64,000 nt of DNA from Candidatus Magasanikiibacteriota bacterium. Lineage in GTDB: Bacteria; Patescibacteriota; Patescibacteriia; Magasanikbacterales; GWA2-37-8. The notes beneath the pieces were generated by a model. The model saw only the letters and a list, made by a program, of their open reading frames with translations. It was not told the DNA's origin and did no database searches. Location of the stretch: NCBI GenBank assembly GCA_016189025.1, contig JACPGS010000029.1:15911-79910 (forward strand), in the 5' to 3' direction. Positions 4,842 through 49,517 of this stretch are shown in pieces; the stretch's first letter is position 1; each line of letters begins with the position of its first letter. The position numbers were made by a program, and so were the translations under genes.

Positions 4842-4947
4842 ATTTTAAGCTAACCAGCAATCAGCTAGCCAGCAGATTCAGCTAGTGGATGATAAGATGA
4901 TGAGAGTATAGCACGGAGGGCCGGACTCTGCTATACTTGAAGATTGT

Positions 4948-7660: not shown

Positions 7661-8275
7661 TCAATTCCGCACGTAATACCACACCGTCGCCAGGCCCCAG
7701 CCCAGGGCAAATTTGTCGGTATGAAAGCAGGTCAGGAAGGGCGCGTCTAAAGTGGCGGTAACGGAAATAATGCGGCTGCCGGGCTTTAGTTGTTGGCAGC
7801 GCTCGGTGAGTTGGGTTAAAAGATTTTCGCTAAAACAGGTGGCTTGAACAAAAATTACGTCCGCCTCGCTCCAGTCTTCGGTAAAAATATCGCCCGACCG
7901 GAAATTGATGTCTGGTTCGGGATAGCTCTGGGGCAGCGCCGGGCGGAGGCGTTGGTTAAATTTTTCCCGTACCGCCGCGGCGGTCTGGTAAAGTTCCGGG
8001 ATCAGCTCAATGCCGACTAAGCGGCGGAAATTCCCCAGGAGGGCGGCGAGTATCACCGCTTTGCCGGTGCCGCTCCCCAAATCATAAAAAGTGCCGCCGG
8101 GGGGTGCGTCGGCGGCGGCGAGCAGCGCCGGGAAGCTGGCAAAGTTAACTTCGCCGTAAGTGAGCTCTTTGGGCGGCGTTTGGCCCCAGTGTTGTTTTCC
8201 GGCGGCGGAGAGCCGGTAGCCGTCAATATCAGCATAAAGGAGGTTGAAGTAACGTTCGGCCAGACCCAGATTCAT
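7661..8275 (-). CDS. class I SAM-dependent methyltransferase
   Basis: YDLGSGTGKAVILAAL Rossmann SAM motif. ORF-track start 8368 lies inside a repeat element, so the likely true start is MNLGLAERY at 8275. Confidence 0.6.
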   Translation of the reverse strand: MNLGLAERYFNLLYADIDGYRLSAAGKQHWGQTPPKELTYGEVNFASFPALLAAADAPPGGTFYDLGSGTGKAVILAALLGNFRRLVGIELIPELYQTAAAVREKFNQRLRPALPQSYPEPDINFRSGDIFTEDWSEADVIFVQATCFSENLLTQLTERCQQLKPGSRIISVTATLDAPFLTCFHTDKFALGWGLATVWYYVRN

Positions 8276-8285
8276 ATTGTAAGAC

Positions 8286-8464
8286 TGTAGAAGAATGCTA
8301 ACTTTATCAGTATCCGCCTGGTCGCTATCGCTATTGCTAAGTTTAACCTGGTTGGTCGCGGCAGACACTCTTTGGGTGCTCCCCCGACTTTAGATCGGGG
8401 TGCGCGCCCAAAGACACTCGTCTGCCGCACCCTGATGCTAACTAGTTTTTCCCATTCTTCTACA
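8286..8464 (+). mobile_element. MITE-like repeat copy 1 (terminal inverted repeats tgtagaagaat/attcttctaca, internal long hairpin 8358..8428)
   Basis: About 88% identical to 45560..45739; 11-bp terminal inverted repeats; fills the whole intergenic space between the VKOR stop and the methyltransferase start. Confidence 0.65.
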
Positions 8465-8473
8465 ACCTCGTTG

Positions 8474-8944
8474 TTATAGGTTTTTTTCGTCTAGCGGCAG
8501 AGGCGTTTTTTTATTGTTGGCAGCGGATTTTTTGAAGTAGTAGAGAATCTGTATACCTAATACGAACAGTAGGGTAGAAGTAGCGGCGGAAACCAGGCAA
8601 TAGAGGCAATACGCGCCGATGACGAAAGCCTGGAGATAAAAAAACCAGAGGGTGGCGAGGAATCCCAAAACTGTTAGGCGAGCGAGCCAGCGCAGAATTA
8701 CTTCGCGACGGGTGTCCAGATAAGCCACGGCGCCCAAGAAGACGGCGAGATAATAGAGCGCTCCGAGGAGCGCCACCGGAATCTGATAGATCGTAGCGTA
8801 GCGGCTGGTGGTAACTACCTCGCAGCCCGCTAAGATTGAACAAGTCGGCGGCTCTCCTTGGTAGTGTTTAAGGGTAAGGTAACTGGCATCAACAAAACCC
8901 ACCAGACTGATTACCAGAAGGGCAAGGGCAAGCGGGCGAAGCAT
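8474..8944 (-). CDS. vitamin K epoxide reductase (VKOR) family protein
   Basis: 156 aa membrane protein with CSILAGC and CLYC motifs; adjacent DsbA-like gene. Confidence 0.7.
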   Translation of the reverse strand: MLRPLALALLVISLVGFVDASYLTLKHYQGEPPTCSILAGCEVVTTSRYATIYQIPVALLGALYYLAVFLGAVAYLDTRREVILRWLARLTVLGFLATLWFFYLQAFVIGAYCLYCLVSAATSTLLFVLGIQILYYFKKSAANNKKTPLPLDEKNL

Positions 8945-9694: not shown

Positions 9695-10342
9695 TTAGAT
9701 TTTGGTTAGCTGTTTTACTTCTTGGATAAAGAATCGTTTTACTGCCGGCCAAGAAATTTTGGTAAACATCTTGGGCATTGCTTGGGCGTCAGCTTCGGTA
9801 AAATAGGTGAGCGATTTATACAGATGATAGGGGTCGTAAGATACACCGGAGAATTGTTTCTGCAAAAAATTTAGCAACTGTTTCAAGGCGATTTGTTCTC
9901 GTTGCAAACAAAGATATAAATCGAGGAAATCCTTTTTGGTATTGCGTCCGGTAATCGCGCCGAGCTTCATCAGGGCAATATCGAGGGGGGTGGCCAAACG
10001 AATCCAGCCCCGGAAGCGAACCGGTTGCTGCCGGAGAGGATAGGGGAAAGTAATGAAGCTTACTTTCACGCCCGCCAGGATGCCTTCTACGGTGTTGGCC
10101 TCTTGATTAGTTAATTCAAAACGAGCCGTCTGTTTTAGTTGTTTTAGGAGCGGCGGGGCGGCAATATTTTTCGCGGTAAAAAAGTCCAAGTCCACCGATT
10201 GCCGGTGACCATAGTGCAGGGCGAGCGCCGTGCCGCCGGCCAAATAAAAATGCTGTAGCCAGCGTTTTCTGCTTAATTTGTTTAACAGACTAGCGGTGGC
10301 GGGGGCGAGCGTGCGGGCAAACATAGTTAGGCGATCTGCCAA
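9695..10342 (-). CDS. nucleotidyltransferase AbiEii/AbiGii toxin family protein
   Basis: AGGTALALHYGHRQSVDLDFF, the DUF1814/AbiEii N-terminal motif. Confidence 0.6.
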   Translation of the reverse strand: MADRLTMFARTLAPATASLLNKLSRKRWLQHFYLAGGTALALHYGHRQSVDLDFFTAKNIAAPPLLKQLKQTARFELTNQEANTVEGILAGVKVSFITFPYPLRQQPVRFRGWIRLATPLDIALMKLGAITGRNTKKDFLDLYLCLQREQIALKQLLNFLQKQFSGVSYDPYHLYKSLTYFTEADAQAMPKMFTKISWPAVKRFFIQEVKQLTKI

Positions 10343-30128: not shown

Positions 30129-30749
30129 ATGAAATATAGAGAAATACTCATCAGTCAGCTCAAATCTTTGCCTTATTTTAGCAAAGAAACGGTCGTATTG
30201 CTTAGCAAACAGTACGATCTGAAGCCCGCTACAGTTGATTCCTACATCAGCCGCTCTTTGGCGCGCAAAGATTTTATTGCCTTTAAAAATGGATTGTATG
30301 TTACGGCTGATTTTTATTACCAGAACGCCGGAGATATCTCGTACACATTTTATTTGGCCAATATAATGTGTCCGCCTTCGTACGTAAGCTCCTGGTCAGC
30401 TCTGCAGTACTATGAACTCGCCACCGAGGCCATTGGCACGGTAACGTCGGTAACGGCCAAAATTACCAGGATCCATAACAATCGGGCCGGGAGTTTTTCC
30501 TATCAGTTTATTAAAAAAAATTTATTTTCCGATTTTACCCTGATCCGGGGGAAGTTCGATTTTTTTATTGCCACGCCCGCTAAAGCGCTGTTTGATCTTA
30601 TCTATTTTAAAACTCACGCGTTCCGCGGCATCCGCGACATCGCCGCCGTAGATGGGATGATTGACAGTTTGCGCATTGATATTGCCGAAATGGAAACAAA
30701 AGAGCGCGATGCCTTTTATACAAAAGTAAAAAAATATTTGAGCATATGA
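30129..30749 (+). CDS. AbiEi-family antitoxin-like protein (type IV TA)
   Basis: 206 aa, N-terminal wHTH-like AbiEi_4 pattern (…IAFKNGLYVT…); overlaps the downstream AbiEii gene by 4 nt; about 38% GC. Confidence 0.55.
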   Translation: MKYREILISQLKSLPYFSKETVVLLSKQYDLKPATVDSYISRSLARKDFIAFKNGLYVTADFYYQNAGDISYTFYLANIMCPPSYVSSWSALQYYELATEAIGTVTSVTAKITRIHNNRAGSFSYQFIKKNLFSDFTLIRGKFDFFIATPAKALFDLIYFKTHAFRGIRDIAAVDGMIDSLRIDIAEMETKERDAFYTKVKKYLSI

Positions 30750-32029
30750 CCGCGACGAATCAGCTTTTTATTGCGCTTAAAACTAAGCTGGACAGTCTGT
30801 CGGCCTATGGTCCGGTGGATGCCGCAGTTAAGCGCAATATTCTGAAAGAAGAATTGCAGTATTATGTTTTGAATTTCCTCTACCACCATTCCGATTATAG
30901 TCAGTGGATTATGTACGGCGGTTCGGCCCTGCGGATTTGCCACGGGCTAAACAGGATGTCGGTAGATTTGGATTTTGAAATTCCGCAGCCGTGCGACGAC
31001 GCGTTTTTGCAGACGCTCGCCAACAGATTGTTGGACTATTTTAAAAATACTTATGCGGTGGAATCAGATTTTTTAACGATTAAAATTACCCGTCGGCGCG
31101 GGTTGACGCTTAAATTTATTGTCGGCGGGGTATTTGATACCGGTCATCCTTCCCCGCAGATACATGTTAAAATTGATCTGAATCATTTTGTGTCTAAAAA
31201 GCTGGTAATTGAGCGAATTCCTATCAATCACGACCAGCTGGCTTTTGTCATTACCACTTACAATATGTCGGCGCTGATGGCCAGTAAAATGGCGGCCATT
31301 TTTTCGCGGTCAAAGCGCGGCGTGGATAAAGAAATTTATGATGAAAAAGGCCGGGATATTTATGACTTGTTATGGTATATGGAAAAAAGAATTATACCCG
31401 ACTTAGATTATTTGAAAGAGAAAGTCCCAGAGATTGCCGATTTCAGGATAATGTTTGACCGGTTGACTGTAAAAATGAATACGGTAAGCGAAAAAAACCT
31501 GCGCGACGATTTAACGCCGCTGTTTGTGGAGCAGTCTTTTATTCAGAATTGGTTAATGAGCTGGCGCAGCAACTTTTTACGGTTAGTAAGGTCTTACGAC
31601 ATTAGAACGATCATAAAATTAGAAAAAATAAGCATCGGTAAAGAATTTCGTGCCGATAATTTTTTCTTTCATTTTATATACGCCACAGATAATGGACGCT
31701 TAACCACTATTAGTTGCTCGATTAGTGATTATTGGTTTTCCTTTCGCGAAGGCGACCTGACCGATTTAATCGCTCCGGTGAATGAAGAAATATTATCGCT
31801 GGTGGAGCACGTGTCCCAGGTGCAGATGAATGACAGAACCAAACAGTACATTGCTTTATTCTATAAAAAAGCAGAGGAATATCTTAAAAAAACGCACAAC
31901 GTTATTTTGGGTGATCGGCTTACCACCAAAACAATTCGGATGACTGCCGATAAGCTGAACCAGGGGGAACAAATAGTATTGAATAAATCGGCCTTACTTT
32001 CGTGCGAGCTGGAGGATTTGTTAAAGTAA
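30746..32029 (+). CDS. nucleotidyltransferase AbiEii/AbiGii toxin family protein with about 150-aa C-terminal extension
   Basis: YGGSALRICHGLNRMSVDLDF N-terminal NTase motif; 427 aa versus the usual 300 or so. Confidence 0.7.
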   Translation: MTATNQLFIALKTKLDSLSAYGPVDAAVKRNILKEELQYYVLNFLYHHSDYSQWIMYGGSALRICHGLNRMSVDLDFEIPQPCDDAFLQTLANRLLDYFKNTYAVESDFLTIKITRRRGLTLKFIVGGVFDTGHPSPQIHVKIDLNHFVSKKLVIERIPINHDQLAFVITTYNMSALMASKMAAIFSRSKRGVDKEIYDEKGRDIYDLLWYMEKRIIPDLDYLKEKVPEIADFRIMFDRLTVKMNTVSEKNLRDDLTPLFVEQSFIQNWLMSWRSNFLRLVRSYDIRTIIKLEKISIGKEFRADNFFFHFIYATDNGRLTTISCSISDYWFSFREGDLTDLIAPVNEEILSLVEHVSQVQMNDRTKQYIALFYKKAEEYLKKTHNVILGDRLTTKTIRMTADKLNQGEQIVLNKSALLSCELEDLLK

Positions 32030-33276: not shown

Positions 33277-33321
33277 CGATTCACCACCGGCGGTATATCT
33301 TAATCAGCATTATAATGAGAC

Positions 33322-33492
33322 TATAGAAGAATAGAACAACCAGCCAGCATCAGGTCGCGACCGATGAGTTCTCTTTTGGCGCGCAACTTTAGTGAGCACC
33401 AAAAGAGTGTCGGTCGCGACCAACCAGGCAGTTTTCCGCAATAGCGATAGCGACCAGGTTAAAAATGTGGTATAGCCAGCATTCTTTTCCAG
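33322..33492 (-). mobile_element. MITE-like repeat copy 3 (degenerate, inverted relative to copies 1 and 2)
   Basis: Matches the reverse complement of copy 1 in blocks (tagaagaat, agcatcagg, caatagcgatagcgaccagg, agcattctt) with a reorganised central hairpin; overlaps the predicted start of the arginine decarboxylase gene. Confidence 0.55.
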
Positions 33493-34892
33493 TCTTAATT
33501 TATTACTCAACAGCATCAGTTGTGTCCAAAAAGAACTTCAAAAAATTCTGGAAACTGGGCCGCCGGGATTTTAGCACCGAACATTTTGACATTAACCCCG
33601 ACGGCGAGCTCGTCATCCGCGAAGGCAACTATCAGTATAATGTTTTGGATTTGGTGCGCAAATTCGGCTCGCCCACTGAAGTTTTTTTGCCTTTTGTGCT
33701 GGAGGAGCGCCTGGAGCGCCTGTTCGACGTGGCCGAGCAAGAGATGAAGCGCCATCATTATCGCGGCAAGTTTTTTTATCACTACCCGATGAAGGTGAAC
33801 CAGAACCGGGAATTCGTACTGCCCTTAGTTTCCGAAGGGGCGCACTTGGAAGTGGGTTCACCCAACGAGCTGTGGCTGGTGAAAAAGCTTTGGGAGGGAG
33901 AAAATTTCCACGCTAAAATCCGGGTGCTCTGCAACGGCCCCAAAACGCCGCGCTACATTAACCTCATCACCGGCCTGCAATCCCAGGGGCTGGCGATTGT
34001 GCCGATTATTGAAGATGCCGAAGAATTGCGTTTGTTAAAAGATTTTCGCGGCGAACTGGGCGTGCGCATTAATCTGCAGTCAAAAGTGCAGTCGCACTGG
34101 GACAAAAAGATTGATCGCTTCGGCTTGTTGGAGGAGGAAATTTTAAGTTTGGGAAAAATTCGCAACCTCAAAATTCTCCATTATCACATTGGCTCACAGG
34201 TAGAACGCGAGAACGACCTATTGGCGGTGCTGAAAGAAGCGTTGCGCGCTTATGTCAAGGTGCGCGCGCAAAACCCTTCGCTTGATACCCTGGACGTCGG
34301 CGGGGGGTTTGCCGTGCCCTACGAGAAAAAGCCGATGTATACCGTGGAGTCGGTGTTGCGGCGAATGTTTTCGGCGCTGGCAAACGCCTCGGCCGCGGCC
34401 GGCATCCCGCACCCCAATTTGATTGTGGAATGGGGCCGGCACCTGGCCGCGCCAGCGCAAATTTCGGTTTTTAAAGTAGTGGCCACCAAGGTAATCCCTA
34501 AAGGCATTGCTAAGTTCTGGTACGTGATTGATGGGAGTTTCATGACGGATTTGCTGGATACCTGGTCGATCCATCAAAAGTGGCATATTGTTCCGGTTGG
34601 CCACGCGGGCGCGGAAAAACGCCACCGCGTTTGGCTGGGCGGTTTGACCTGCGATTCCGACGACAAATACGCTGATGCCGAAGGATATGTGCTCTTGCCC
34701 CGGATAGAGGATTTGGGGCCAGGCGAGGATTTGTACTTGGCGATTTTTGACACCGGCGCCTACCAGGATTCCTTTGCCATGCATCATTGCCTGATTTCTA
34801 GTCCGGCCAAGATTGTGCTGCAGAATGGCCTGGTTACCATGGCGCGCAAGCGCGAATCGCCGGAAGAGATCGGCAAGATGTTTGGGTGGTAG
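33465..34892 (+). CDS. speA: arginine decarboxylase (Orn/DAP/Arg decarboxylase family 2, SpeA-like); start uncertain
   Basis: YPMKVNQN PLP-lysine motif, LEVGSPNEL block; first 28 nt lie inside repeat copy 3. Confidence 0.7.
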   Translation: MWYSQHSFPVLIYYSTASVVSKKNFKKFWKLGRRDFSTEHFDINPDGELVIREGNYQYNVLDLVRKFGSPTEVFLPFVLEERLERLFDVAEQEMKRHHYRGKFFYHYPMKVNQNREFVLPLVSEGAHLEVGSPNELWLVKKLWEGENFHAKIRVLCNGPKTPRYINLITGLQSQGLAIVPIIEDAEELRLLKDFRGELGVRINLQSKVQSHWDKKIDRFGLLEEEILSLGKIRNLKILHYHIGSQVERENDLLAVLKEALRAYVKVRAQNPSLDTLDVGGGFAVPYEKKPMYTVESVLRRMFSALANASAAAGIPHPNLIVEWGRHLAAPAQISVFKVVATKVIPKGIAKFWYVIDGSFMTDLLDTWSIHQKWHIVPVGHAGAEKRHRVWLGGLTCDSDDKYADAEGYVLLPRIEDLGPGEDLYLAIFDTGAYQDSFAMHHCLISSPAKIVLQNGLVTMARKRESPEEIGKMFGW

Positions 34893-36968: not shown

Positions 36969-37376
36969 ATGCTTTTAGTAAAAACTAAAATTGGGCCGAG
37001 TAAAATTCATGGTATCGGATTGTTTGCGGATGAATTTATTCCTAAAGGCAAACTGATGTGGCGGGTGGAGCATGATTTTGATCTTGAGTTTGAGGCCAGT
37101 CAGCTGGTCAATTTATCCGCTCCGTCCCGAGCGCAGTTTTTGAAATATTCTTACCGACATCCGAAGACGGGGAAGTACGTTCTGCCTTTTGACGATGCTC
37201 GTTTTTTTAATCACGCTGATCATCCGAACATTAACAGCGTCTATCCCAACGGTAATAACGGCGAATGTGATGTAGGTATTGCGGCGCAAGATATTATGGC
37301 TGGCGAAGAATTGACGTGCAATTATCGGGAGTTTGATGCCGATAGCGTTGTAAAATTAGAGTTTGAAGCCGGTTAA
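36969..37376 (+). CDS. SET domain protein (putative lysine methyltransferase)
   Basis: GIGLFA…, FFNHADHPN, GEELTCNY SET motifs; 135 aa. Confidence 0.75.
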   Translation: MLLVKTKIGPSKIHGIGLFADEFIPKGKLMWRVEHDFDLEFEASQLVNLSAPSRAQFLKYSYRHPKTGKYVLPFDDARFFNHADHPNINSVYPNGNNGECDVGIAAQDIMAGEELTCNYREFDADSVVKLEFEAG

Positions 37377-37378
37377 TT

Positions 37379-38455
37379 ATGAGCGGTGTTGTTAAAAATT
37401 CTAAATTGCAAAAAATCTCCTCTTACGATCCCGGCGGTATTTACACCAATGGTCAATTATTCGGCTTACCGTTTACCAACCAGGAATCCGAAGTAGTGAT
37501 TGTGCCGATGCCGTGGGAAGTTACCACGTCGTACCGCGACGGCACGGCGCAGGGGCCGCGGACAGTGCTCAAAGCATCGTATCAGGTAGACTTGTACGAC
37601 CTGGATGCTCCCGAAGCTTGGGAATTAGGTATCGGGATTCAGCCGATTTCCTCTGCTTGGAGCCGGCAGAATACTGTATTGCGGCGCCAAGCAAAAAAAT
37701 ATCTGGATTATCTGTATAATGGCGGCGACACCAGAGTAAAGTGGGTGCGCCAGACGCTGGCGGAAATTAACCAAGCCGGGGCCGAGCTAAATGGCTGGAT
37801 GAAAAAGGAAACTGCCAAATTGCTAAAACAAAATAAATTAGTGGGGGTATTAGGCGGGGAGCATAGCGTATCGCTTGGATTTATGCAGGCGCTGGCGGAG
37901 CAATATCCCCGGTATTCCATATTGCACCTTGATGCCCACGCTGACTATCGCGCGGCTTATGAAGGGTTTGAATTTTCTCACGCCTCTATCCAGTATAACG
38001 CGGGGAAGATTAAGCAGGTGGACCGGCAGGTGCTGGTCGGCATCCGCGATTATTCGCACGCCGAGGCGCAGCGCATCGCCGAATCGCACGGCCGAATTGC
38101 GGCGTTTCCGGATAGAGAAATAAAGCGCGGCGCCTACGCGGGAAAAACGTGGCAAGCGCAATGCGGCGAAATTATTAAGCCGCTCTCTAAAGAAGTTTAT
38201 ATCAGTTTTGATATTGATATCCTAGACCCCTCGCTGTGTCCGCATACCGGCACGCCGGTGCCGGGCGGCCTGGAGTTTGAACAGGTATTTTATCTGATTG
38301 AAGCCGTCATCAAGAGCGGGCGTAAAATTATCGGTTTCGATCTGTGCGAGGTGGCGCCAGGCGTTGGCAATAACGGCGAATGGGATGCCATCGTCGGGGC
38401 GCGGGTGCTGTATCGCCTGGCTATTTTAATGGCTAAATCACAGCGGCGAATATAG
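37379..38455 (+). CDS. speB: agmatinase / arginase-family ureohydrolase
   Basis: HLDAHADY, SFDIDILDP manganese-binding motifs; adjacent to speA-like gene. Confidence 0.75.
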   Translation: MSGVVKNSKLQKISSYDPGGIYTNGQLFGLPFTNQESEVVIVPMPWEVTTSYRDGTAQGPRTVLKASYQVDLYDLDAPEAWELGIGIQPISSAWSRQNTVLRRQAKKYLDYLYNGGDTRVKWVRQTLAEINQAGAELNGWMKKETAKLLKQNKLVGVLGGEHSVSLGFMQALAEQYPRYSILHLDAHADYRAAYEGFEFSHASIQYNAGKIKQVDRQVLVGIRDYSHAEAQRIAESHGRIAAFPDREIKRGAYAGKTWQAQCGEIIKPLSKEVYISFDIDILDPSLCPHTGTPVPGGLEFEQVFYLIEAVIKSGRKIIGFDLCEVAPGVGNNGEWDAIVGARVLYRLAILMAKSQRRI

Positions 38456-38492
38456 TTTGAATACGCAAGTAGTCTAATTTAGTCGCTCGGTC

Positions 38493-38559
38493 GTGGTAGA
38501 CACCCTCCGTGCTCCCCCCGCCTACGCGGGGGTGCGCGCGCAGGGAACCCGTCTACCAC
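38493..38559. repeat. palindromic structured element related to the MITE core (gtggtagac…gtgctcccccc-hairpin-gggggtgcgcgc…gtctaccac)
   Basis: Same architecture and partial sequence as 8358..8428 and 45633..45703, but without MITE arms. Confidence 0.55.
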
Positions 38560-38593
38560 TCCCTCACTCGTTGCAATATTTACAGTAATTTTT

Positions 38594-39112
38594 ATGGTCA
38601 AAGTTTTACTGATCATCGCCCACGACGGCTTCCAGCCCGTGGAGTATGGCGAACCAAAACGTATTCTCACGGAGGCAGGGATTACGGTGGTAACGGCCAG
38701 CAATATGTCGGGAATGGCGACTGCTGCCCATACCGGCGAGCAGGTAGCGATTGATTGTACGCTTGATCATGTCCAGGCGGGCGATTACGACGGCATATTT
38801 TTTGTCGGCGGCCCGGGCGCTCTAGAACATTTGGATAATGAACAATCCTACGAAATCGCGCGCGCGGCCGCGGCCCTGGGCAAGCCCTGGGGAGCAATTT
38901 GCATCTCCACGCGGATTTTGGCGCACGCGGGCGTGCTCAAAAACAAAACCGCCACCGGGTGGGATGGCGACAATGAACTGGGCGGAATTTTAGCGGCCGC
39001 TGGCGCCACGTATTTACGCGAGCCAGTCGCGGTAGACGGCCTGCTGATTACCGCCGCCGGCCCGACCGCGGCCCTGGCCTGGAGCCAAAAAATTCTGGCG
39101 GCGTTGCGCTAG
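38594..39112 (+). CDS. DJ-1/PfpI family protein
   Basis: 172 aa class-I glutamine amidotransferase-like fold, GAICIS nucleophile-elbow region. Confidence 0.7.
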   Translation: MVKVLLIIAHDGFQPVEYGEPKRILTEAGITVVTASNMSGMATAAHTGEQVAIDCTLDHVQAGDYDGIFFVGGPGALEHLDNEQSYEIARAAAALGKPWGAICISTRILAHAGVLKNKTATGWDGDNELGGILAAAGATYLREPVAVDGLLITAAGPTAALAWSQKILAALR

Positions 39113-40099: not shown

Positions 40100-40393
40100 T
40101 TAGCGCTGATTGTTTTCGGTAGTATGTTGATGTTTCCCCCGCATAATTTGAATTAATTCTCGCCCTGCCACCGCTAACAACAGCCCAAAAGCAAAAATAA
40201 AAATGACGTTATTGATCCAAAGGGCGTAGACTAATAAACAGGCCGACCCAATGACAAACACCGCGTCCTGGCGCCGCTCCGCCTCCAGATAAACACCATA
40301 GGCAAGCAGTATACCACCGAGCAGCCCCACTATTTGTACCAACGTTTCCACTAGTGGCTGGGGAAGACCGGGCAGAAAGTTAGCTAAAGGCAT
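40100..40393 (-). CDS. small membrane protein, paralog of 43888..44133
   Basis: 97 aa; ILLAYGVYLEAERRQDAVFVIGSACLLVYAL aligns with LLITYGIYIKNEIKQDWIFVLGGLCLLAYSI. Confidence 0.5.
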   Translation of the reverse strand: MPLANFLPGLPQPLVETLVQIVGLLGGILLAYGVYLEAERRQDAVFVIGSACLLVYALWINNVIFIFAFGLLLAVAGRELIQIMRGKHQHTTENNQR

Positions 40394-40394
40394 A

Positions 40395-43300
40395 TTAAAT
40401 TTCTACTACCGGATGTTCTCCTTCTGGATTCCAATTGGCGTAGCCATTAAAATTGGTTACTGGTTCTTTTATCAAAGTGACCTTAGGCTGTTCCTTAAAA
40501 TGCTGCTCATAATATCGTGCCACCTCGGGACGATTAGTGCTTGATCGTGATGTCTGATCAAGCGGTACTACGGTATGGGGAATGTTGCGTTGTGCTGCTA
40601 TCTGGCGTAGCGCGGCAAGAGTTTGCGCTATTAGTGTATCAGGCACTACCTGACTAAGCAATCCCTCTTGCGGGTTATTAGCTCGCACCAAGAGCACCAG
40701 CTCACCTTGAGGCGTTTTAGTTTCAATGGCGAGGACCGAGCCCCGCAGGCGTTCCTGGGGAGTATGGCGACCCGTAACAAAGATCAAGGGAGTAATGGTG
40801 CGATATTCACCGCGGGCGAACGCTCGGTGGTGGCTAGTAAAACAAGCATCGCCAATGTCACCAGCATAGATTCGTAAGATACCGCGCACCGGCACCAAGG
40901 TAACCTCTACAGTTTTCCCGCCCGCCTTTACTAGCGGAGTTTCTGTCTGCTGCAAAGCAGACAATTGTTCGGCGGCGATCACCAAAGGGTGCTTTTGCAG
41001 TTTGGGTTTTATCCCCCACACTAACTGTAGTTCTTTCAATAAGGTACTGGAAAACGGTTGGTGTCCGGTACGATGCTCTTCCTGTTTATTATTTAGATAA
41101 TGCTCGTTAAGGTATTCCCCTAAATGGTTATACCAGAGCTCCACTTGGGTGGCAGAAGATACCTCGGTGTTCTCTTCCAGAGCACGTTCTATTACTGATT
41201 GTCGGCCGTCCGGCATTACCAGTAGTGAGTGGTAAGCGCTGATGATCTGCAATAGTCGATCACGATCAATTACCTTTTTCGGCAGCAGCATCAGGATAGC
41301 TTCCAACCAGCTGATTAGTTCCCGGTCGCGTGCCCCCCGGTCAGGGGAAAGAGTTGGAGCTTCCAGGCGTTCCAGTGTTGCCCGGGTTTCCACCAGCGTT
41401 TGACGTTGTCTGGTCAGTGCTTTGCGATTAACGGGTTTCTCGGTTTCCCAAGCAGTAGCTAGTTCATCCAACCTGGCAATTTGTTGATCAATCTCCAATA
41501 CCAGGCGCTGGTGTTCTTCCGCCCACCAGTGAGGGAGTTGGTCAATGTTCCGGGCAGTCCGGTAGGCAACGTCAAGTTTTTTTACCCACCCCCGTAGGTC
41601 GGGGTTAGTGAGAATTTCTTGTTCGCGTGCTGCCTGCGCCTGGGGAATTTGTTCTCGGCTGCTTGCCACTGATGGCAACTTAAAGGTTACTTCTTGGTAT
41701 CCCGCGGGGAGGGCAGCTTGGTCGGGATTAGCAGCGACGGTGGTTTGCCAAAGCTGAATATTTTTTCGGGGGTCATCATTTTTTTGTTCCCAACTAGTAG
41801 CTCCTTTAATTGCATGAAAAAACTCTAAACCGAGGTCGGTATTTAGTTCCGGTGGGACTTGATCAGCCAGTAAGGCAGTTTGCAGGCGGCGCCCGAATTT
41901 TTTAATCTCGTTGATAATAAATCCTTTATTGGGTAATTCTTCCAGCCGGATGCCGAGAGTACTGGTTAATTCTTGTCGTACTTCGGCGGGCAGGTCAGTG
42001 ATTTTTTCGGACCGAGAAATGGCCACATGCCAGCGGAGGAGGGTAGGCAAATTATACATGCCGTAGGTATGCACAAAATCTTTCAACAGTTCTGCATCTT
42101 CGGCACTGTCACGTCGCAGTACTCCCCGCGTCAGTGCCTGCTCTACCAGCGGGTCTAGGTCAGTTTTCCAAGGATCATATTTTTCCCGTGCCGCGCGGGG
42201 GTGGCTTTTTAACAATTTTCCATATATGGGCTGCCAGGAAAAATTTTCGGCCAAAGAGTTTAGAGTTTCGGGGGGCAGCAGCGCCTGGAGGATCGCCGGA
42301 TATTTCAGAAATTCCGTGGGACAAAAAAAGGAAGGGGGTAGCTCGACAAAGGCTTGGCGGAGATTGGCTTGGGTTTCGGCAGGGTAGGCCATCGTCAGTT
42401 CGGTTATTTTTTTTTGGTAAAAGCCGTCGTGCAACAATTCAAGGTTAAGGGTAGGGAGACGTTGAATAATAGTATGGATAATTTCTCGTCTTTCTTCCAG
42501 CGAGAGGGGGAAGGCGGAGTACTTTAGGCGTTCCCAAGGGTTTTCGCGGCATAAGCGCAGTTTTACGGCGGAGATTTCCTCTGGGGATAGTTGAAGTTTT
42601 GCCAGAACCCCTTCATCAAGAAGATGAAAAACATGCCGACCAACCAATATATCAATAATACTATCGCGCTCGGGACGGGTAAACTCAACAGGAATTATGG
42701 GTAGGGAACTGGTTTCATGGTCAGCCACTTCGGTCAACCACTTTAAGCGTTGTTCCGGGGTGAGGGGAATTATGGGGTAAAAACGAGTCAGGTAATTATA
42801 ATAAATAGGAATAGCAGCATCTATTATTTTTGCTTGTTCGGCCTCGGGTAAAGCAAGGAAGAGGGGTTCAAATTCATCAAAATCCCGGATAATCGTAGCG
42901 GGGTTGTATTTTTGGCGCGCCGCAAAAATAGCGGGTGCGGCTGCGGTGCGATGTTCGGGGGGAAAGTCACGGAGAGAGAAACGTTGCAGCATTGACGGTT
43001 TAGTTCCTTGCGTCTGCAGTTGGGAAAAAATTTCATAACGCACTGCCGGAGTCCATTCTTGGCTGTCCCGATAGTAACCAGTTGCCACCGAAGCTAAGAC
43101 GTCCGGAAGATTGCCAAGCCTTTCCTTTATACAAGGGAGGATTTCGGTGCTGGTCTGGCAGGATTTCCTGGCCAGTTCATATAATTCATTAGCAGCGCTG
43201 TCGACCCCAGGAGTTTCGTCCGGCAGTTGGCGATAGAAAGCAATTGTCGGTTCTAACCCTTCGGCCAATTTTTCCTGTAGTCGCTTATCTACCATCTTGG

Positions 43301-43871
43301 CAATTTTGTCCTCTACTCCATACCAGTTAACTCGTGGCAATTCCCGGGCGGAAAGATATAGTTGAATGGCGGCCAAGAGGTCAGAATCCAGCAGTTTTTG
43401 AATTTTTGCCAACGCTTCATCGCCCCGCTTCCAGGCCAGACTATTATGCATTCTTTCCACCTCTTCTTTAATTTTGTCTTCCCTTATCCCAGCCTCTCCC
43501 GCATAGCGGGTATAGAGGGGGAAAGCGATAGCATCGCCGGCATGTAGTGCTAGTCGCCGGGTCGCCATTTCCAGAAACTCCAGTCGTGCCTTGGGATGAT
43601 GCAACTGGCGGCTCGCTTCTAGGGCAAGGCGCGGGTCTGGGTTAATCCACTGGGTTTCAAATTCTTCCGCGACCGTTTTTACCCTATCTAGTTCTTCTCC
43701 CGGGGCATCAACTTCTTTGGGATCACGGTCCTGGTTTTCTCCTGATAAGTAAGTGTCAGTGAAGGTGTTGATGGTGGCGATAATTTCTTTGAGTCGAGGC
43801 GGCAACTCCATGGTTTCTGGCGGTGATAAAGTTTCTGGTGGCGGGCCGGTGGTTTCCGGATTTCTGATCAT
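40395..43871 (-). CDS. large hypothetical protein (1158 aa, no recognisable domain)
   Basis: Long uninterrupted ORF, alpha-helical/Pro-rich composition, no TM, no Walker motif; tightly packed between two paralogous small membrane genes. Confidence 0.6.
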   Translation of the reverse strand: MIRNPETTGPPPETLSPPETMELPPRLKEIIATINTFTDTYLSGENQDRDPKEVDAPGEELDRVKTVAEEFETQWINPDPRLALEASRQLHHPKARLEFLEMATRRLALHAGDAIAFPLYTRYAGEAGIREDKIKEEVERMHNSLAWKRGDEALAKIQKLLDSDLLAAIQLYLSARELPRVNWYGVEDKIAKMVDKRLQEKLAEGLEPTIAFYRQLPDETPGVDSAANELYELARKSCQTSTEILPCIKERLGNLPDVLASVATGYYRDSQEWTPAVRYEIFSQLQTQGTKPSMLQRFSLRDFPPEHRTAAAPAIFAARQKYNPATIIRDFDEFEPLFLALPEAEQAKIIDAAIPIYYNYLTRFYPIIPLTPEQRLKWLTEVADHETSSLPIIPVEFTRPERDSIIDILVGRHVFHLLDEGVLAKLQLSPEEISAVKLRLCRENPWERLKYSAFPLSLEERREIIHTIIQRLPTLNLELLHDGFYQKKITELTMAYPAETQANLRQAFVELPPSFFCPTEFLKYPAILQALLPPETLNSLAENFSWQPIYGKLLKSHPRAAREKYDPWKTDLDPLVEQALTRGVLRRDSAEDAELLKDFVHTYGMYNLPTLLRWHVAISRSEKITDLPAEVRQELTSTLGIRLEELPNKGFIINEIKKFGRRLQTALLADQVPPELNTDLGLEFFHAIKGATSWEQKNDDPRKNIQLWQTTVAANPDQAALPAGYQEVTFKLPSVASSREQIPQAQAAREQEILTNPDLRGWVKKLDVAYRTARNIDQLPHWWAEEHQRLVLEIDQQIARLDELATAWETEKPVNRKALTRQRQTLVETRATLERLEAPTLSPDRGARDRELISWLEAILMLLPKKVIDRDRLLQIISAYHSLLVMPDGRQSVIERALEENTEVSSATQVELWYNHLGEYLNEHYLNNKQEEHRTGHQPFSSTLLKELQLVWGIKPKLQKHPLVIAAEQLSALQQTETPLVKAGGKTVEVTLVPVRGILRIYAGDIGDACFTSHHRAFARGEYRTITPLIFVTGRHTPQERLRGSVLAIETKTPQGELVLLVRANNPQEGLLSQVVPDTLIAQTLAALRQIAAQRNIPHTVVPLDQTSRSSTNRPEVARYYEQHFKEQPKVTLIKEPVTNFNGYANWNPEGEHPVVEI

Positions 43872-45545: not shown

Positions 45546-45559
45546 AATTAAGCTGAGAT

Positions 45560-45739
45560 TGTAGAAGAATGTTGACGATAATCGTTATCTGCCTAGTCGC
45601 TATCGCTATTGCTAAAATTAGCCTGGTTAGTCGCGGCAGACACTCTTTGGGTGCTCCCCCGACTTTAGATCGGGGTGCGCGCCCAAAGATACTCGTCTGC
45701 CGCTCCCTAATGCTGACTGGTATTTTTAATTCTTCTACA
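45560..45739 (+). mobile_element. MITE-like repeat copy 2 (terminal inverted repeats, hairpin 45633..45703)
   Basis: Near-identical to 8286..8464; occupies the rpe-trxB intergenic region and ends 14 nt before the trxB start codon. Confidence 0.65.
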
Positions 45740-45742
45740 GTC

Positions 45743-46381
45743 TCAAGCTACTAACGTCTGCAGTACTGCGTATTCTTGGCGGGGATTATGCGCTTGTAGT
45801 AAGCCGTGCCCCACATTGGCAATCTCCACTCCCAAATCCCGCAGTTCCCTTATATTACTCCTATCCACCGCCCCGTCAACCGCGCACCGGGGTCGGCCCG
45901 GGCGGGCAGTAAAAGCAGCGATTTTGGCTTTAACTTCCGGGTGGAAGGCCTGGCCCTGGGCGCCGGGGGCAACGGTCATGAACTGTAAAACTTTGATTGA
46001 TATTGATGATAAAAAAGGGTCGGCGGCGGAAAGCGGCGTTTTTGGATTTAATACCAGTCCCGCTTCCCAGCCGGCGGTTTGAGCGGCAGCGACGCCCGCC
46101 GCCGGATTATTGGCTTCAACCTGCACCAGGGCGCGGAACACGCCGCGCACCCCTTGCCAGCGTTTAATTTCCGCCGCGGGGTCGGCCACCATCAGGTGCA
46201 GTTCGGAGCGATCAGGGAGCGGCAGTTCGTTCAAGCGTTCGCGCTCGGGAAAAGTTCGGTGCGGCACAAACACGCCATCCATCACATCCAGGTGGAGATA
46301 AGGGGCGAGACCCCCCACTCGTTCTAGGGCGGCAGTAAACTCATCAAAAGTCAGCGCTAAAATAGCTGGGATAATCAGCAT
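45743..46381 (-). CDS. rpe: ribulose-phosphate 3-epimerase
   Basis: HLDVMDGVFVP and VAPGAQGQAF blocks. Confidence 0.8.
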   Translation of the reverse strand: MLIIPAILALTFDEFTAALERVGGLAPYLHLDVMDGVFVPHRTFPERERLNELPLPDRSELHLMVADPAAEIKRWQGVRGVFRALVQVEANNPAAGVAAAQTAGWEAGLVLNPKTPLSAADPFLSSISIKVLQFMTVAPGAQGQAFHPEVKAKIAAFTARPGRPRCAVDGAVDRSNIRELRDLGVEIANVGHGLLQAHNPRQEYAVLQTLVA

Positions 46382-47117: not shown

Positions 47118-47588
47118 ATGAGCGATCTCCGCGCGTTGGCACACCTGGAAGAGCAGCTTGGCGAGGCCCGTTGGCAAGCTCTGATCAGCTCGGGTAACAC
47201 CGGGAAGATCAAGGAGTTCCTGGACACCCTCCCCGAGTGCGCCATCCCCACCGAGATGATCCTCGGCGGGGTCGCCTACGACATCCTCTCGTTCCTCCGG
47301 GGTGAGCAGTCGGTGAAGGGCGACCTCATGGTCGAGCGGGCCAAGGAGATGGGCGCTCACCAGGGTAAGAAGGAGCGCGAGCATCTCCTTGCTTACCAGG
47401 ATGAGATCCCCGTCGCGCTCCGCGGCAAGGTCGTCTTCGTCTTCACCGACGACCGGCGCCCGGGCGGCCCCGAGTACGTCTGCTGCGTCTGCTGGGACGA
47501 CGACCGCTGGGTCTCGCGCTGGGACTGGCTCGACGGCGGCTTCTTCGGCCGCTGCCGGGTTCTCCGCCGCAAGTCCGCGCAGCCCTAG
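47118..47588 (+). CDS. DGR target (variable) protein, C-terminal variable repeat
   Basis: 156 aa, about 65% GC; last 39 codons form a VR matching the downstream TR except at TR adenines. Confidence 0.7.
   Translation: MSDLRALAHLEEQLGEARWQALISSGNTGKIKEFLDTLPECAIPTEMILGGVAYDILSFLRGEQSVKGDLMVERAKEMGAHQGKKEREHLLAYQDEIPVALRGKVVFVFTDDRRPGGPEYVCCVCWDDDRWVSRWDWLDGGFFGRCRVLRRKSAQP
47454..47570 (+). repeat. DGR variable repeat (VR)
   Basis: 117 bp aligned to 47956..48072; 20 mismatches, all at TR adenine positions; identical GC-rich 3' block ccgggttctccgccgc. Confidence 0.8.
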
Positions 47589-47660
47589 GATCCTTGGAAT
47601 CTCAGCACTGTCACAAACGGTGTCGGGGTCACTCGGTCCCTTCGGCTCGCGCCGCAACAA

Positions 47661-47695
47661 GCCCGCCCTAAACACTAGGGCGGGCGTATCATTTT
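47661..47695 (+). terminator. hairpin plus T-run downstream of VR (terminator / DGR-associated stem-loop)
   Basis: gcccgccc-taaacacta-gggcgggc followed by gtatcattttt. Confidence 0.55.
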
Positions 47696-47955
47696 TGTGG
47701 TATACTGTACCCTGGATAGTAAACGAAACAGTCCACGGTGGCGGTCGCTCAAGGCGACCAAAGCTTTGGGCGGTTGAACTCTGGATACACCAACCGGCCA
47801 GAATAGTTTGGCGCATGTCGCCAGCTAGCGTGCCATTGGTATACCCTAAAAATGATGATACTTGGTGCAAAATGCTGGTGAGATCAAGTCTCCAAATAAA
47901 ATACAGCCCTGAGAGTATTCAAAGGGTAGTGATACAGATGGCAATTTGCATAAAG

Positions 47956-48072
47956 CGGCACCCGGACGACCCCGAGAACGTCTACTACGTCTACTGGAAC
48001 GACGACCGCTGGGTCACGAACTGGAACTGGCTCGACAACGACTTCAACGGCAACTACCGGGTTCTCCGCCGC
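47956..48072 (+). repeat. DGR template repeat (TR)
   Basis: Non-coding copy of VR, enriched in AAC codons in the VR frame (N-N-N-N corresponding to D/G/C in VR). Confidence 0.8.
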
Positions 48073-48113
48073 CAGTCTTCTCATTCTCCCGTCCATGTGG
48101 CGGGAGTTTCATT

Positions 48114-48536
48114 TTATGACGATTCGAGTTTCCGTATCCACCCCCCAAGCATAATACCGGCCTCAGTCAACTTTCCTGCTAGTTGTGAGTATTGGTTTGT
48201 CTCAAGCCCCTTGGCCTCCCACAAAATTGTTATGAAAAATTTAAGGTGATCAAGTTTTTGCGCAAGTTGGGTAAGTACCGCTAATTTCTGTTCACGTTTA
48301 GCATACTGCGCTGTCAATGTCACAGCAACCAAATCCGTAAATAAAATATCTATTTTTACGCCCAGCGTATAGCGCGTGAGGCGAGGAAGGTGTTGTAAAA
48401 AATTATGCCACAACAAATAACTCTCTTTGAGCAAAGACAAAATGGGAATTTCAGTACTGCCCTGCCCGTGAGCAAATTTGCCGTGGGGGGGGGGGGGCTT
48501 GATAGCCGCGTCGGTGGAAAAATTCAATTGGCTCAT
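48114..48536 (-). CDS. accessory variability determinant (Avd)-like four-helix-bundle protein; N-terminus uncertain
   Basis: LPRLTRYTLGVKIDI…LKFFITILWEAKGL…TEAGIMLGGWIRK parallels Bordetella phage Avd (IPRKHG…LRFWLRFLAGIQ…AEVGRILGSWI). Confidence 0.65.
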   Translation of the reverse strand: MSQLNFSTDAAIKPPPPHGKFAHGQGSTEIPILSLLKESYLLWHNFLQHLPRLTRYTLGVKIDILFTDLVAVTLTAQYAKREQKLAVLTQLAQKLDHLKFFITILWEAKGLETNQYSQLAGKLTEAGIMLGGWIRKLESS

Positions 48537-49517
48537 AGTTACGAAAATATTATTTGCTTAGAAAATTTATGCTTAGCGTGGGAAGAATTTATCATCGGCA
48601 AGAAAAAGAAACAAGATGTTATAGATTTTGGTCGTAGCTTGATGGACAATATTGTAGAGCTTCACGAGGCGTTAGTCAATCGCACTTATCGCCACGGCAG
48701 TTACGAAAGTTTTTACATCACCGACCCCAAACGGCGGCATATCCACAAGGCCAGCATGCGCGACCGCTTGCTTCATCACGCAGTGTATAGGATTTTGTAT
48801 CCATTTTTTGACCGTACGTTTATTGGTGACTCTTTTTCTTGCCGAGATAACAAAGGCGTACATAAAGCGCTTAATCGTTTTCGGCGTCTAGCCTGGCGTG
48901 CCAGCCGCAACCATACGCGCAATGTCTGGGTGTTTAAGTGCGACATCCGCAAGTTTTTTGCGCGCGTTGACCACCAGATTTTGTTAGCGATTTTGCATAC
49001 CTATATTCCGGATACGGATATTTTACGGCTGCTGCAAAATATTATTGAGAGCTACCATACCGAAAGCAATCCTGGCATTGGCCTACCGCTTGGTAACCTC
49101 ACCTCACAGCTTTTCGCCAATGTGTATCTAAACCGGCTTGATCACTGGGCCAAGCACGCACTTAAGTCGCATTATTATGTGCGTTATGCCGATGATTTTG
49201 TTTTGCTTTCTCGCGACCGGTTCCAGTTAGCAGAAGCCCTACCAAAAATTCAGGAATTTTTGCAGACTCAACTAAAACTATCCCTGCACCCGGACAAAAT
49301 ATTATTAAAGACAGTAGCCTCGGGCATGGATTTTTTAGGCTGGGTACATTTTTCCAGCCATTGTTTGCTTCGTACCAAAACTAAACAGAGAATGTTACAG
49401 AATATCAGAAACTCAATCAGCGAGGCGGGTCTGACATCATATCTCGGCCTAATCAGCCATGGCAACACCGCCGGATTGCGCGAACGGGTGATGGAGGAGT
49501 ATTGGCTGTGGAATTAA
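48405..49517 (+). CDS. DGR-type reverse transcriptase; true start probably near 48528
   Basis: YENIICLENLCLAWEEFIIGKKKK N-terminal RT0 block, TSQLFANVYLNRLDH, YVRYADDFVLL (YADD) catalytic motif. Confidence 0.85.
   Translation: MPQQITLFEQRQNGNFSTALPVSKFAVGGGGLDSRVGGKIQLAHSYENIICLENLCLAWEEFIIGKKKKQDVIDFGRSLMDNIVELHEALVNRTYRHGSYESFYITDPKRRHIHKASMRDRLLHHAVYRILYPFFDRTFIGDSFSCRDNKGVHKALNRFRRLAWRASRNHTRNVWVFKCDIRKFFARVDHQILLAILHTYIPDTDILRLLQNIIESYHTESNPGIGLPLGNLTSQLFANVYLNRLDHWAKHALKSHYYVRYADDFVLLSRDRFQLAEALPKIQEFLQTQLKLSLHPDKILLKTVASGMDFLGWVHFSSHCLLRTKTKQRMLQNIRNSISEAGLTSYLGLISHGNTAGLRERVMEEYWLWN
48485..48497. repeat. 13-nt poly-G homopolymer at the avd/RT 5' junction
   Basis: Seen directly (ccgt G13 ctt). 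Confidence 0.9.

Follow-up and report, generated by a model that had tools for sequence, protein, structure and literature searches.

A palindromic element between agmatinase and DJ-1/PfpI genes of Candidatus Magasanikbacteria, a probable solo copy of a non-autonomous repeat family

The element described here is an imperfect palindrome of 67 nt at positions 38493–38559 of a 64,000-nucleotide stretch of DNA from Candidatus Magasanikiibacteriota bacterium (assembly GCA_016189025.1, contig JACPGS010000029.1). This whole stretch is referred to below as the window, and its first letter is position 1. The palindrome separates a gene of the agmatinase family from a gene of the DJ-1/PfpI family and is called the core-only element, since it consists of a hairpin that is elsewhere in the window flanked by arms. 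The element is most likely selfish mobile non-coding DNA and not a gene. It is probably a solo copy, old and by now immobile, of a non-autonomous palindromic repeat family specific to bacteria of the Candidate Phyla Radiation (CPR, or Patescibacteria). Established for this family are the homology of its members, the conservation of the hairpin, the terminal inverted repeats (TIRs) and target-site duplications (TSDs) of a longer form, presence and absence in relatives, the lack of coding capacity and the lack of a match to a known RNA family.

A conserved hairpin with and without transposon-like arms

The unit of the family is a hairpin of ~88 nt. It is made up of a weak helix P0 that closes the hairpin (in the copies of the window, GGT/ACC), a helix P1 of 7–11 bp and of variable sequence, an asymmetric internal loop with 1–6 nt on its 5′ side and 5–9 nt on its 3′ side, a helix P2, which differs in sequence and is paired in every member, and a centre. 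[quoted passage not shown] The centre is asymmetric and spans 21 nt, GUGC[U]CCCCC...GGGG[U]G[C]GCGC, and is found in all copies with the exception of a degenerate MITE, copy C. Within it GUGC pairs with GCGC through a U·G wobble, a U×C mismatch and a bulged U are present, and CCCCC pairs with GGGG and one additional G, such that the outermost C is matched with the G beyond the bulged U.

The core-only element reads GTGGTAGAC A CCCTCC GTGCTCCCCC CGC CTAC GCG GGGGTGCGCGC GCAGGG AACCC GTCTACCAC, exactly as transcribed in a preliminary description made from the letters of the DNA, which had also proposed that the palindrome is related to the central hairpin of the MITEs. This homology was borne out by 71% identity to the hairpins of two MITEs (copies A and B), by the common order of P1, loop, P2 and centre, and by compensatory changes in the helices. 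For the motif GYGGYAGAC the window has 11 occurrences where 1.4 are expected; they include both arms of the core-only element and of the MITE hairpins at 8358–8428 and 45633–45703. The homology extends beyond the 67 nt to approximately 38481–38568, with GGTCG before and TCCCT after. A repeat search of 38493–38559 returned arms of 20 nt at 38493–38512 and 38540–38559. The RNA fold reached −48.1 kcal/mol on the forward strand (z −4.3) and −56.1 kcal/mol on the reverse strand (z −5.3), and in each case 0 of 200 shuffled sequences folded as well; the values for single-stranded DNA were −21.2 / −27.0 kcal/mol. The parts of the element are the following.

38481–38568, forward strand: complete short-form element, ~88 nt, aligned over its full length (positions 1–88) to the covariance model R1 described below (26.3 bits, E 1.6e-3)
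38493–38501, forward strand: 5′ arm of P1, GTGGTAGAC, nine perfect pairs with 38551–38559
38503–38508, forward strand: 5′ side of P2, CCCTCC, paired with 38540–38545 with one C×C mismatch
38509–38518, forward strand: 5′ half of the conserved centre, GTGCTCCCCC, the same in the core-only element, MITE A, MITE B and the external copies L035, L081 and L027
38519–38528, forward strand: variable P3 extension and loop, CGC CTAC GCG, in which copies differ and pairing is kept
38529–38539, forward strand: 3′ half of the conserved centre, GGGGTGCGCGC, invariant
38540–38545, forward strand: 3′ side of P2, GCAGGG, paired with 38503–38508
38546–38550, forward strand: asymmetric 3′ internal loop, AACCC, unpaired in all folds
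38551–38559, forward strand: 3′ arm of P1, GTCTACCAC, paired with 38493–38501

The helices P1 and P2 covary among the copies and the centre is fixed. Compared with MITEs A and B, whose P1 is GCGGCAGAC / GTCTGCCGC, the P1 of the core-only element has two compensatory changes, and copy C adds two more. In a hand-made structural alignment of the four copies of the window, 90% of the cells were paired, ten pairs were changed on both sides and none on one side only; this was equalled by 0 of 500 shuffles, and sliding the register lowered the paired fraction to about 35–56%. A six-sequence structural alignment gave 94% paired cells and changes on both sides in 16 of 38 pairs; these values were reached by 0 of 500 shuffles, and sliding the register reduced the paired fraction to about 40–55%. 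This alignment was adjusted manually to the structure and is biased in its favour.

When the whole window was searched with a profile of the family, four copies and no others were returned, namely the core-only element and three MITEs.

8281–8469, forward strand: MITE copy A, TIRs AAGACTGTAGAAGAATG / CATTCTTCTACAACCTC
8348–8434, forward strand: hairpin module of copy A (R1 40.9 bits, E 7.4e-7)
45555–45744, forward strand: MITE copy B, TIRs GAGATTGTAGAAGAATG / AATTCTTCTACAGTCTC
45624–45709, forward strand: hairpin module of copy B (R1 41.1 bits, E 7e-7)
33317–33496, reverse strand: MITE copy C, degenerate, found through its arm sequences; its flanks share a duplication of ATT only
33351–33427, reverse strand: hairpin module of copy C (R1 35.9 bits, E 1.1e-5)

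Copies A and B are ~190 bp long and 88% identical to each other, and all three long forms end in TIRs of ~17 bp, (A/G)AGAYTGTAGAAGAATG. A 5-bp duplication without mismatch, AAGCT, borders copy B (45550–45554 and 45745–45749), and copy A is bordered by ATTGT (8276–8280) and GTTGT (8470–8474), which agree at four of five positions. Copy A occupies the gap between the stop codon of a VKOR gene (8474) and the ATG of a DOT1-like gene (8275), so that its excision leaves a spacer of 4 nt. With copy B and one duplicate removed, the ribulose-phosphate epimerase gene regains a TAA stop, 2 nt ahead of the ATG of a thioredoxin-reductase-like gene. The TIRs, the duplications and these compact reconstructed junctions, with intact stops and spacers of 2–4 nt, mark the arms as transposon-like, as the preliminary description had suggested. 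Its statement that the core-only element lacks such arms is equally correct: the arm TIR TGTAGAAGAATG is absent from it, and its sole inverted repeats are the helices of the hairpin. The sizes fall under the ~500 bp expected of MITEs, with 88 nt for the short form, ~190 bp for the long forms and no open reading frame (ORF) of their own. Copy C has lost the P3 (CCCCC/GGGG) helix by deletion and reads GTGCTC-ACTAAAG-TTGCGCGC; P1 (11 bp) and P2 (9 bp) are kept in it through compensatory substitutions and a paired lengthening by one base.

Several further traits of the long forms are of note. The present TGA stop of the epimerase gene (45743–45745) is composed of the last two bases of MITE B and the first base of the duplication; the reconstructed empty site has TAA at this codon. 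The listed first ATG (33465) of the Orn/Arg decarboxylase gene downstream falls within copy C, and its orthologue in a related genome (L120, see below) suggests a start probably ~16 codons downstream. A direct repeat of 9 nt brackets the inner left arm and the hairpin (8295–8303 and 8435–8443 in copy A). It reads ATGCTAACT in copy A, ATGTTGAC/ATGCTGAC in copy B and ATGCTGGCT in copy C, its two sides differing in step among the copies, and it may have been left by a nested insertion or represent paired binding sites for a protein. The left arm also carries a partial duplicate of the 5′ flank of the hairpin, CCTGGTCGC.

Homologues in other genomes and variation at the insertion sites

Copies outside the window were sought in a genome collection with the pattern GTGCTCCCCN{4,22}GGGGTGCGCG, which is loose and draws chance matches in high-GC actinobacteria. 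Among at least 109 loci retrieved, the full hairpin architecture was present in three, L035 (Candidatus Curtissbacteria), L081 and L027 (Patescibacteria group bacterium). A metagenome scan with a stricter pattern returned only the L035 site again, as L117. The three copies have no arms and are ~88 nt long. They have common ends, CGGGTCCTGTC...GCCACCCG, and an identical 21-nt centre; the sequences of their P1 and P2 helices differ, and each is mutually complementary. The L081 contig is labelled Gammaproteobacteria, and its XerD-like protein is 90% identical to proteins of Curtissbacteria. On the strength of this identity all known members of the family are from CPR bacteria, and none is shown outside them.

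A covariance model, R1, was built from L035, L081 and L027 only and scored at every position of the window; the preliminary description had named the building of such a model as a check. The four highest matches were exactly the four copies, each aligned from end to end, with 41.1, 40.9, 35.9 and 26.3 bits, and the next match scored 17.1 bits. On 142 control loci (1.1 Mb, mostly carriers of the centre pattern) R1 did not exceed 23 bits outside the training set, save at one locus that had been selected by its termini. Copy C, which lacks the centre pattern, scored 35.9 bits, and the link between the window and the external copies is thus more than a product of the search pattern. Since R1 also aligns the interior of a MITE (8348–8434) end to end, the long form is a short-form element nested between arms. 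The suggestion that the hairpins form a family with and without arms is upheld by these results, as arm-less homologues of ~88 nt exist in other CPR genomes and suffice to find the four copies of the window.

The surroundings of the external copies are diverse. The L035/L117 copy lies in frame within the 775-codon ORF of a valyl-tRNA synthetase. Compared with the Thermus thermophilus enzyme (1gax), the protein has 35 residues in place of 3 at the element, between STLGW and FYP, which amounts to ~32 extra residues. When the element's four open frames were compared with 5.8 billion proteins, no other in-frame insertion was returned. The L027 copy is located between two tandem pilin-like genes. 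The L081 copy fills the atpE–atpF spacer, which consists of 5 nt, the element and 13 nt. In close Curtissbacteria with near-identical coding flanks this spacer holds four unrelated fillings or a bare 19 nt, and none of 24 such atp loci has a member of the family. A different palindromic sequence of ~95 nt, TTGGGTTACTAGG...CCCAGTAACCTAAC, is found in L175 (~3858–3952), an AT-rich repeat in L152 and L154 (L152 8255–8391), another repeat in L160 and L161 (L160 9891–9981), and 19 nt only in L165–L174 (L165 8600–8618). The spacer is polymorphic for presence, absence and replacement on a short time scale. Two of the four fillings resemble other palindromic or repeat elements.

The agmatinase locus itself varies in the same manner. 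L120 (GCA_030650025.1; 65% amino-acid identity) keeps the gene order and has no element; its agmatinase and DJ-1 genes are 16 bp apart. In L118 (85% identity) the agmatinase gene is followed by an ordinary terminator with a T-run and no element, and L150 and L151 have neither the DJ-1 gene nor the element at this locus. As these relatives lack the element, the core-only copy is an addition specific to its lineage, at a spot that varies. Six Logan contigs of the same species (L110–L115), each from a different run, were also inspected. Five of the six end 17–18 nt inside the element (38509–38510) and the sixth ends 13 nt short of it, which suggests a coverage dropout or an assembly or graph break at a strong GC hairpin.

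An IS5-family insertion sequence (IS; ORFs with DDE_Tnp_1 and DUF4096) was observed in L151 at 4465–5355, in the variable region downstream of the agmatinase gene. It has 18-bp TIRs, AGAGCCTGTCTAAAAAGC, and a TAA duplication. Its TIR GAGCCTGTCTAAAAAGC and the MITE TIR GAGACTGTAGAAGAAT have GAG.CTGT in common, and seven of the eight outermost bases are alike (GAGCCTGT in the IS and GAGACTGT at the MITE end); its duplication is 3 bp long, compared to 5 bp for the MITEs. As a candidate parent of the MITEs, suggested by end similarity, this IS is only a lead.

Hairpins with an identical 21-nt centre were also seen in two alphaproteobacterial settings, L038 (a Rhizomicrobium metagenome-assembled genome, MAG) and the viral contig L116 (929–968). 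They have flanking helices of their own (CGAC/GTCG) and stand between two other hairpins. The loop GACTTAGATC of L095 resembles the MITE loop GACTTTAGATC. R1 gives at most 21 bits for L038, L116 and L095, whose likeness to the family may reflect homology or coincidence. Among viral contigs L116 was the only match to the centre pattern. The termini pattern gave 23 viral loci that are chance matches in coding sequence (L139 is doubtful, with a fold z of −1.2), and the arm motif matched phage coding sequence (L145).

Mechanism and competing explanations

In the mechanism that we favor, the short form would be the ancestral unit, spreading as a unit or being exchanged by recombination after transfer. 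A trans-acting protein may recognize the folded single strand of the short form, and such recognition would explain why the helices covary while the asymmetric centre is fixed. The MITE of ~190 bp, with its TIRs and TSDs, would carry this unit as cargo in the window and is presumably moved in trans by a transposase of the DDE type. In its present place the core-only element is predicted to be co-transcribed with the flanking genes and to form a stable stem-loop with no terminator function. At most, it may tune the stability or processing of the agmatinase/DJ-1 message, by protection of the 3′ end or by RNase processing, as proposed by analogy with REP, ERIC and Correia elements.

The genes concerned, which lie on the same strand as the element as listed, are these; the element begins 37 nt past the stop codon of the first and ends 34 nt ahead of the ATG of the second.

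37379–38455, forward strand: upstream gene of the agmatinase/arginase family (Pfam PF00491, E 6.9e-53), the product of which is 100% identical to [quoted passage not shown]
38594–39112, forward strand: downstream gene of the DJ-1/PfpI family (Pfam PF01965, E 1.4e-33)

The same observations have to be weighed against explanations that assign the hairpin a function or another mode of movement. The very stable fold on both strands, the invariant centre with covarying helices, and the location of all six intergenic copies between co-directional genes, by which they are almost certainly transcribed, would also suit a cis-acting RNA that shields the agmatinase message from 3′ exonucleases, is processed by RNase III or RNase E, or adjusts the translation of DJ-1; such roles are documented for REP, ERIC and Correia elements (PMC10969869). 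The MITEs would then merely carry, or derive from, a useful hairpin module. We consider this unlikely. With respect to transcription two copies are in sense orientation (core-only and L035) and five in antisense (A, B, C, L027 and L081), and this mixture argues against a strand-specific RNA gene. The relatives make do with a 16-bp spacer or a normal terminator at the agmatinase locus, copy C was retained despite the loss of its centre, one copy resides within coding sequence, and no two copies have neighbors of the same functional class. It is very improbable that the element is a small RNA gene in its own right or a leader of DJ-1 resembling a riboswitch. The secondary structure is conserved and the element ends just upstream of the gene, but Rfam gave no match even at permissive thresholds, the element has no promoter- or terminator-like site of its own, the genes that follow the other copies are unrelated and the orientation of these copies varies, and orthologous DJ-1 loci lack the element. 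That the palindrome arose by chance, or is the ordinary intrinsic terminator of the agmatinase gene, is hardly credible. It does lie just past the stop codon, where L118 has a terminator; yet no T-run follows it, shuffled sequences did not fold as well, and three homologous copies in the window and three in other CPR genomes refute this explanation.

A substrate of the REP/REPIN or IS200/IS605 type, that is, a folded single strand bound and cut by a transposase of the HUH (Y1) class, for instance a RAYT, whose gene would lie elsewhere in the genome, is a quite unlikely alternative to the favored mobile-repeat reading, even if it accounts for several traits. Conservation based on structure, with fixed extrahelical or mismatched bases (the U bulge, U×C and U·G), is the signature of a hairpin recognized as single-stranded DNA, the short form has neither TIR nor TSD, and P1 of the core-only element begins with GTGG/GTAG in the manner of REP heads (PMC2817692). 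The head, however, varies, being GCGG in A, B and C and CAGT, CGCA or CGCG in the external copies. No Y1_Tnp domain is encoded in the window, and the unit measures 88 nt compared to 20–40 nt for REPs, occurs at low density and is missing from ~190 kb of relatives.

Several points weigh against our own reading of the element as a selfish mobile repeat. Compensatory changes in DNA palindromes can come from template switching between the arms (quasipalindrome correction), with no need for selection. The external copies were found by a pattern derived from the centre, which makes the link circular in this respect. The R1 score of the core-only element, 26.3 bits, is slightly above background, and its membership is based mainly on the 71% identity that it shares with the hairpins of the MITEs. 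Apart from its helices the short form offers no clear TIR, and a convincing target duplication is missing as well, the flanks of the core-only element, CGCTC and CACTC, agreeing at four of five positions at ill-defined boundaries. The strain differences at the atp locus look like replacement of the whole spacer and not like clean insertion. No partner enzyme was found among the 49 scanned ORFs of the window, and no copy elsewhere has a linked gene. No copy occurs in ~190 kb of related CPR contigs, which makes the family sparse, unlike classical REPs. Finally, a 21-nt centre that is identical from one CPR class to another is conserved beyond what is usual for selfish DNA. A tentative and rather unlikely proposal is that the invariant centre, between its covarying helices, is the recognition module of a factor common to CPR classes (Magasanikbacteria, Curtissbacteria and other Patescibacteria). 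Candidates for this factor would be structure-specific enzymes or proteins that bind nucleic acids, and the MITE would have captured the hairpin as cargo. Were this so, the hairpins would make up a new class of structured elements with a biology of their own, for instance hairpin-dependent mobility or a conserved interaction of RNA or DNA with a protein.

Relation to known repeats and meaning for CPR genomes

Searches for known classes were negative. Rfam gave no match at gathering thresholds over the whole window and none at the external copies, and only noise at the element (E >3). A search for tRNA and tmRNA returned none, and a terminator and promoter scan found neither at the element, where the stem is followed by TCCCTCACTCG with no T-run. 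Pfam analysis of 49 ORFs of the window identified no transposase, integrase or Y1/RAYT protein, the sole reverse transcriptase being that of a diversity-generating retroelement (DGR), and the gene tables of the related loci contain no RAYT. Integron attC sites were rejected as an identity, for the ends are CGGGT...ACCCG or GGT...ACC, with none of the AAC/GTT triplets that belong to attC core sites of the form RYYYAAC ... GTTRRRY, and the window has no integrase; a XerD-like gene does lie 2 kb from the L081 copy, and every strain has it, with or without the element. Candidate identities as SRP, tmRNA, RNase P or a CRISPR I-E repeat amounted to Rfam noise (CRISPR-DR28, 15.7 bits against a threshold of 35), and the likeness of the half GUGYUCCCCGC...GCGGGG to a type I-E repeat was set aside, as there are no arrays and no cas genes. 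In the literature GTGCTCCCCC appears only as the archaeal 16S probe ARC915.

The family is a new one among the REP-, ERIC- and MITE-like palindromic repeats and is a member of none of ERIC, REP/REPIN, Correia, RPE (Rickettsia palindromic elements) or BOX. ERIC (or IRU) of Enterobacteriaceae and Vibrionaceae is an imperfect palindrome of ~127 bp, intergenic within operons, co-transcribed and of variable copy number, with short and long forms that arise by internal deletion or insertion; it is sometimes intragenic and can alter the stability of mRNA (PMC10969869). The family described here is likewise an imperfect palindrome in operon spacers, with shorter and longer forms and an occasional intragenic copy. 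It differs in having no sequence similarity to ERIC and a CPR host, and in that the short form is the conserved unit, common to several classes. blastn of the MITE against 5,426 complete Escherichia coli genomes and the PLSDB plasmids gave no match, and the element is therefore not ERIC.

REPs are extragenic, GC-rich imperfect palindromes with covarying stems, fixed unpaired bases at specific sites and no TIR or TSD (PMC2817692); they are presumably recognized as folded single strands (PMC2817692; PMC3116915). They measure 20–40 nt, have a GT[AG]G head, usually exceed 100 copies per genome and have a flanking RAYT gene. The present element has ~88 nt, its head is not conserved, its density is low, with four copies in the 64 kb of the window, and neither the scanned ORFs nor the related loci showed a RAYT. 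The preliminary description had called the element REP-like. This stands as far as a structured repeat family is meant; a conserved GT[AG]G head and a linked RAYT in the window are both lacking, and the term is a functional analogy only.

The long form is comparable to the Correia elements of Neisseria (CREE/NEMIS) and to MITEs of the TIR type, with its 190 bp, 17-bp TIR, short TSD, location beside start and stop codons and capacity for a long RNA hairpin. Correia transcripts are cleaved by RNase III (PMC10969869). In Correia elements, which contain IHF sites, the duplication is TA, whereas the long form has a 5-bp duplication and contains a separately conserved hairpin that also occurs solo. 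Rickettsia palindromic elements are small repeats of a reduced genome that insert in frame into genes for essential proteins (PMC10969869). One clear case of this kind, the addition of ~32 residues to a valyl-tRNA synthetase of Curtissbacteria, is known for the present family. RPE are ~150 bp long and often intragenic, in contrast to an element of ~88 nt for which no further in-frame insertion was found among the proteins searched. BOX of Streptococcus pneumoniae is a modular repeat, boxA-boxB-boxC, and resembles the family in that modules are variously combined; there is no sequence relation, and the modules of BOX are not individually conserved over phylum-level distances.

The window has a GC content of 52.5%, and its genes include recA, ftsK, rpoB, rpoC and ileS. 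The DGR extends over 47454–49517. Its variable repeat (47454–47575) is at the 3′ end of an ORF on the forward strand and is followed by the template repeat (47956–48077), all mismatches between the two being at adenines of the template copy, and by the RVT_1 reverse transcriptase (48405–49517). Two proteins resemble histone methyltransferases of the eukaryotic type, a SET-domain protein (36969–37376), whose gene is flanked by a deoxyhypusine-synthase-like gene and the agmatinase gene, and a DOT1-like methyltransferase (7661–8275) encoded directly downstream of MITE A. An ORF of 1158 residues on the reverse strand (40395–43871) has no Pfam domain, and an adjoining ORF of 97 residues (40100–40393) has no hits. 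Two genes encode nucleotidyltransferase toxins of the AbiEii family (type IV toxin–antitoxin or abortive infection), at 9695–10342 and 30746–32029.

Genomes of CPR bacteria are ~1 Mb in size and tightly packed, and are usually called poor in mobile DNA. Our literature search returned no report of REP- or MITE-like repeats in these bacteria. The family is unusual in that its 21-nt asymmetric centre is identical across CPR classes and in that the same module is found both solo and within a MITE with TIRs. For the biology of the flanking genes the element is probably of little consequence. For the genomes, the family means that CPR bacteria do hold small palindromic repeats, which are wedged into operon spacers of 2–4 nt, rebuild stop codons and, in a single instance, lengthen an essential aminoacyl-tRNA synthetase. 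These repeats mark spacers that differ among near-identical strains and coincide with assembly breaks, and the family is thereby a handle for strain typing and for judging the assembly quality of CPR MAGs. If the centre proves to be the recognition site of a protein, it could offer a route to an unknown enzyme.

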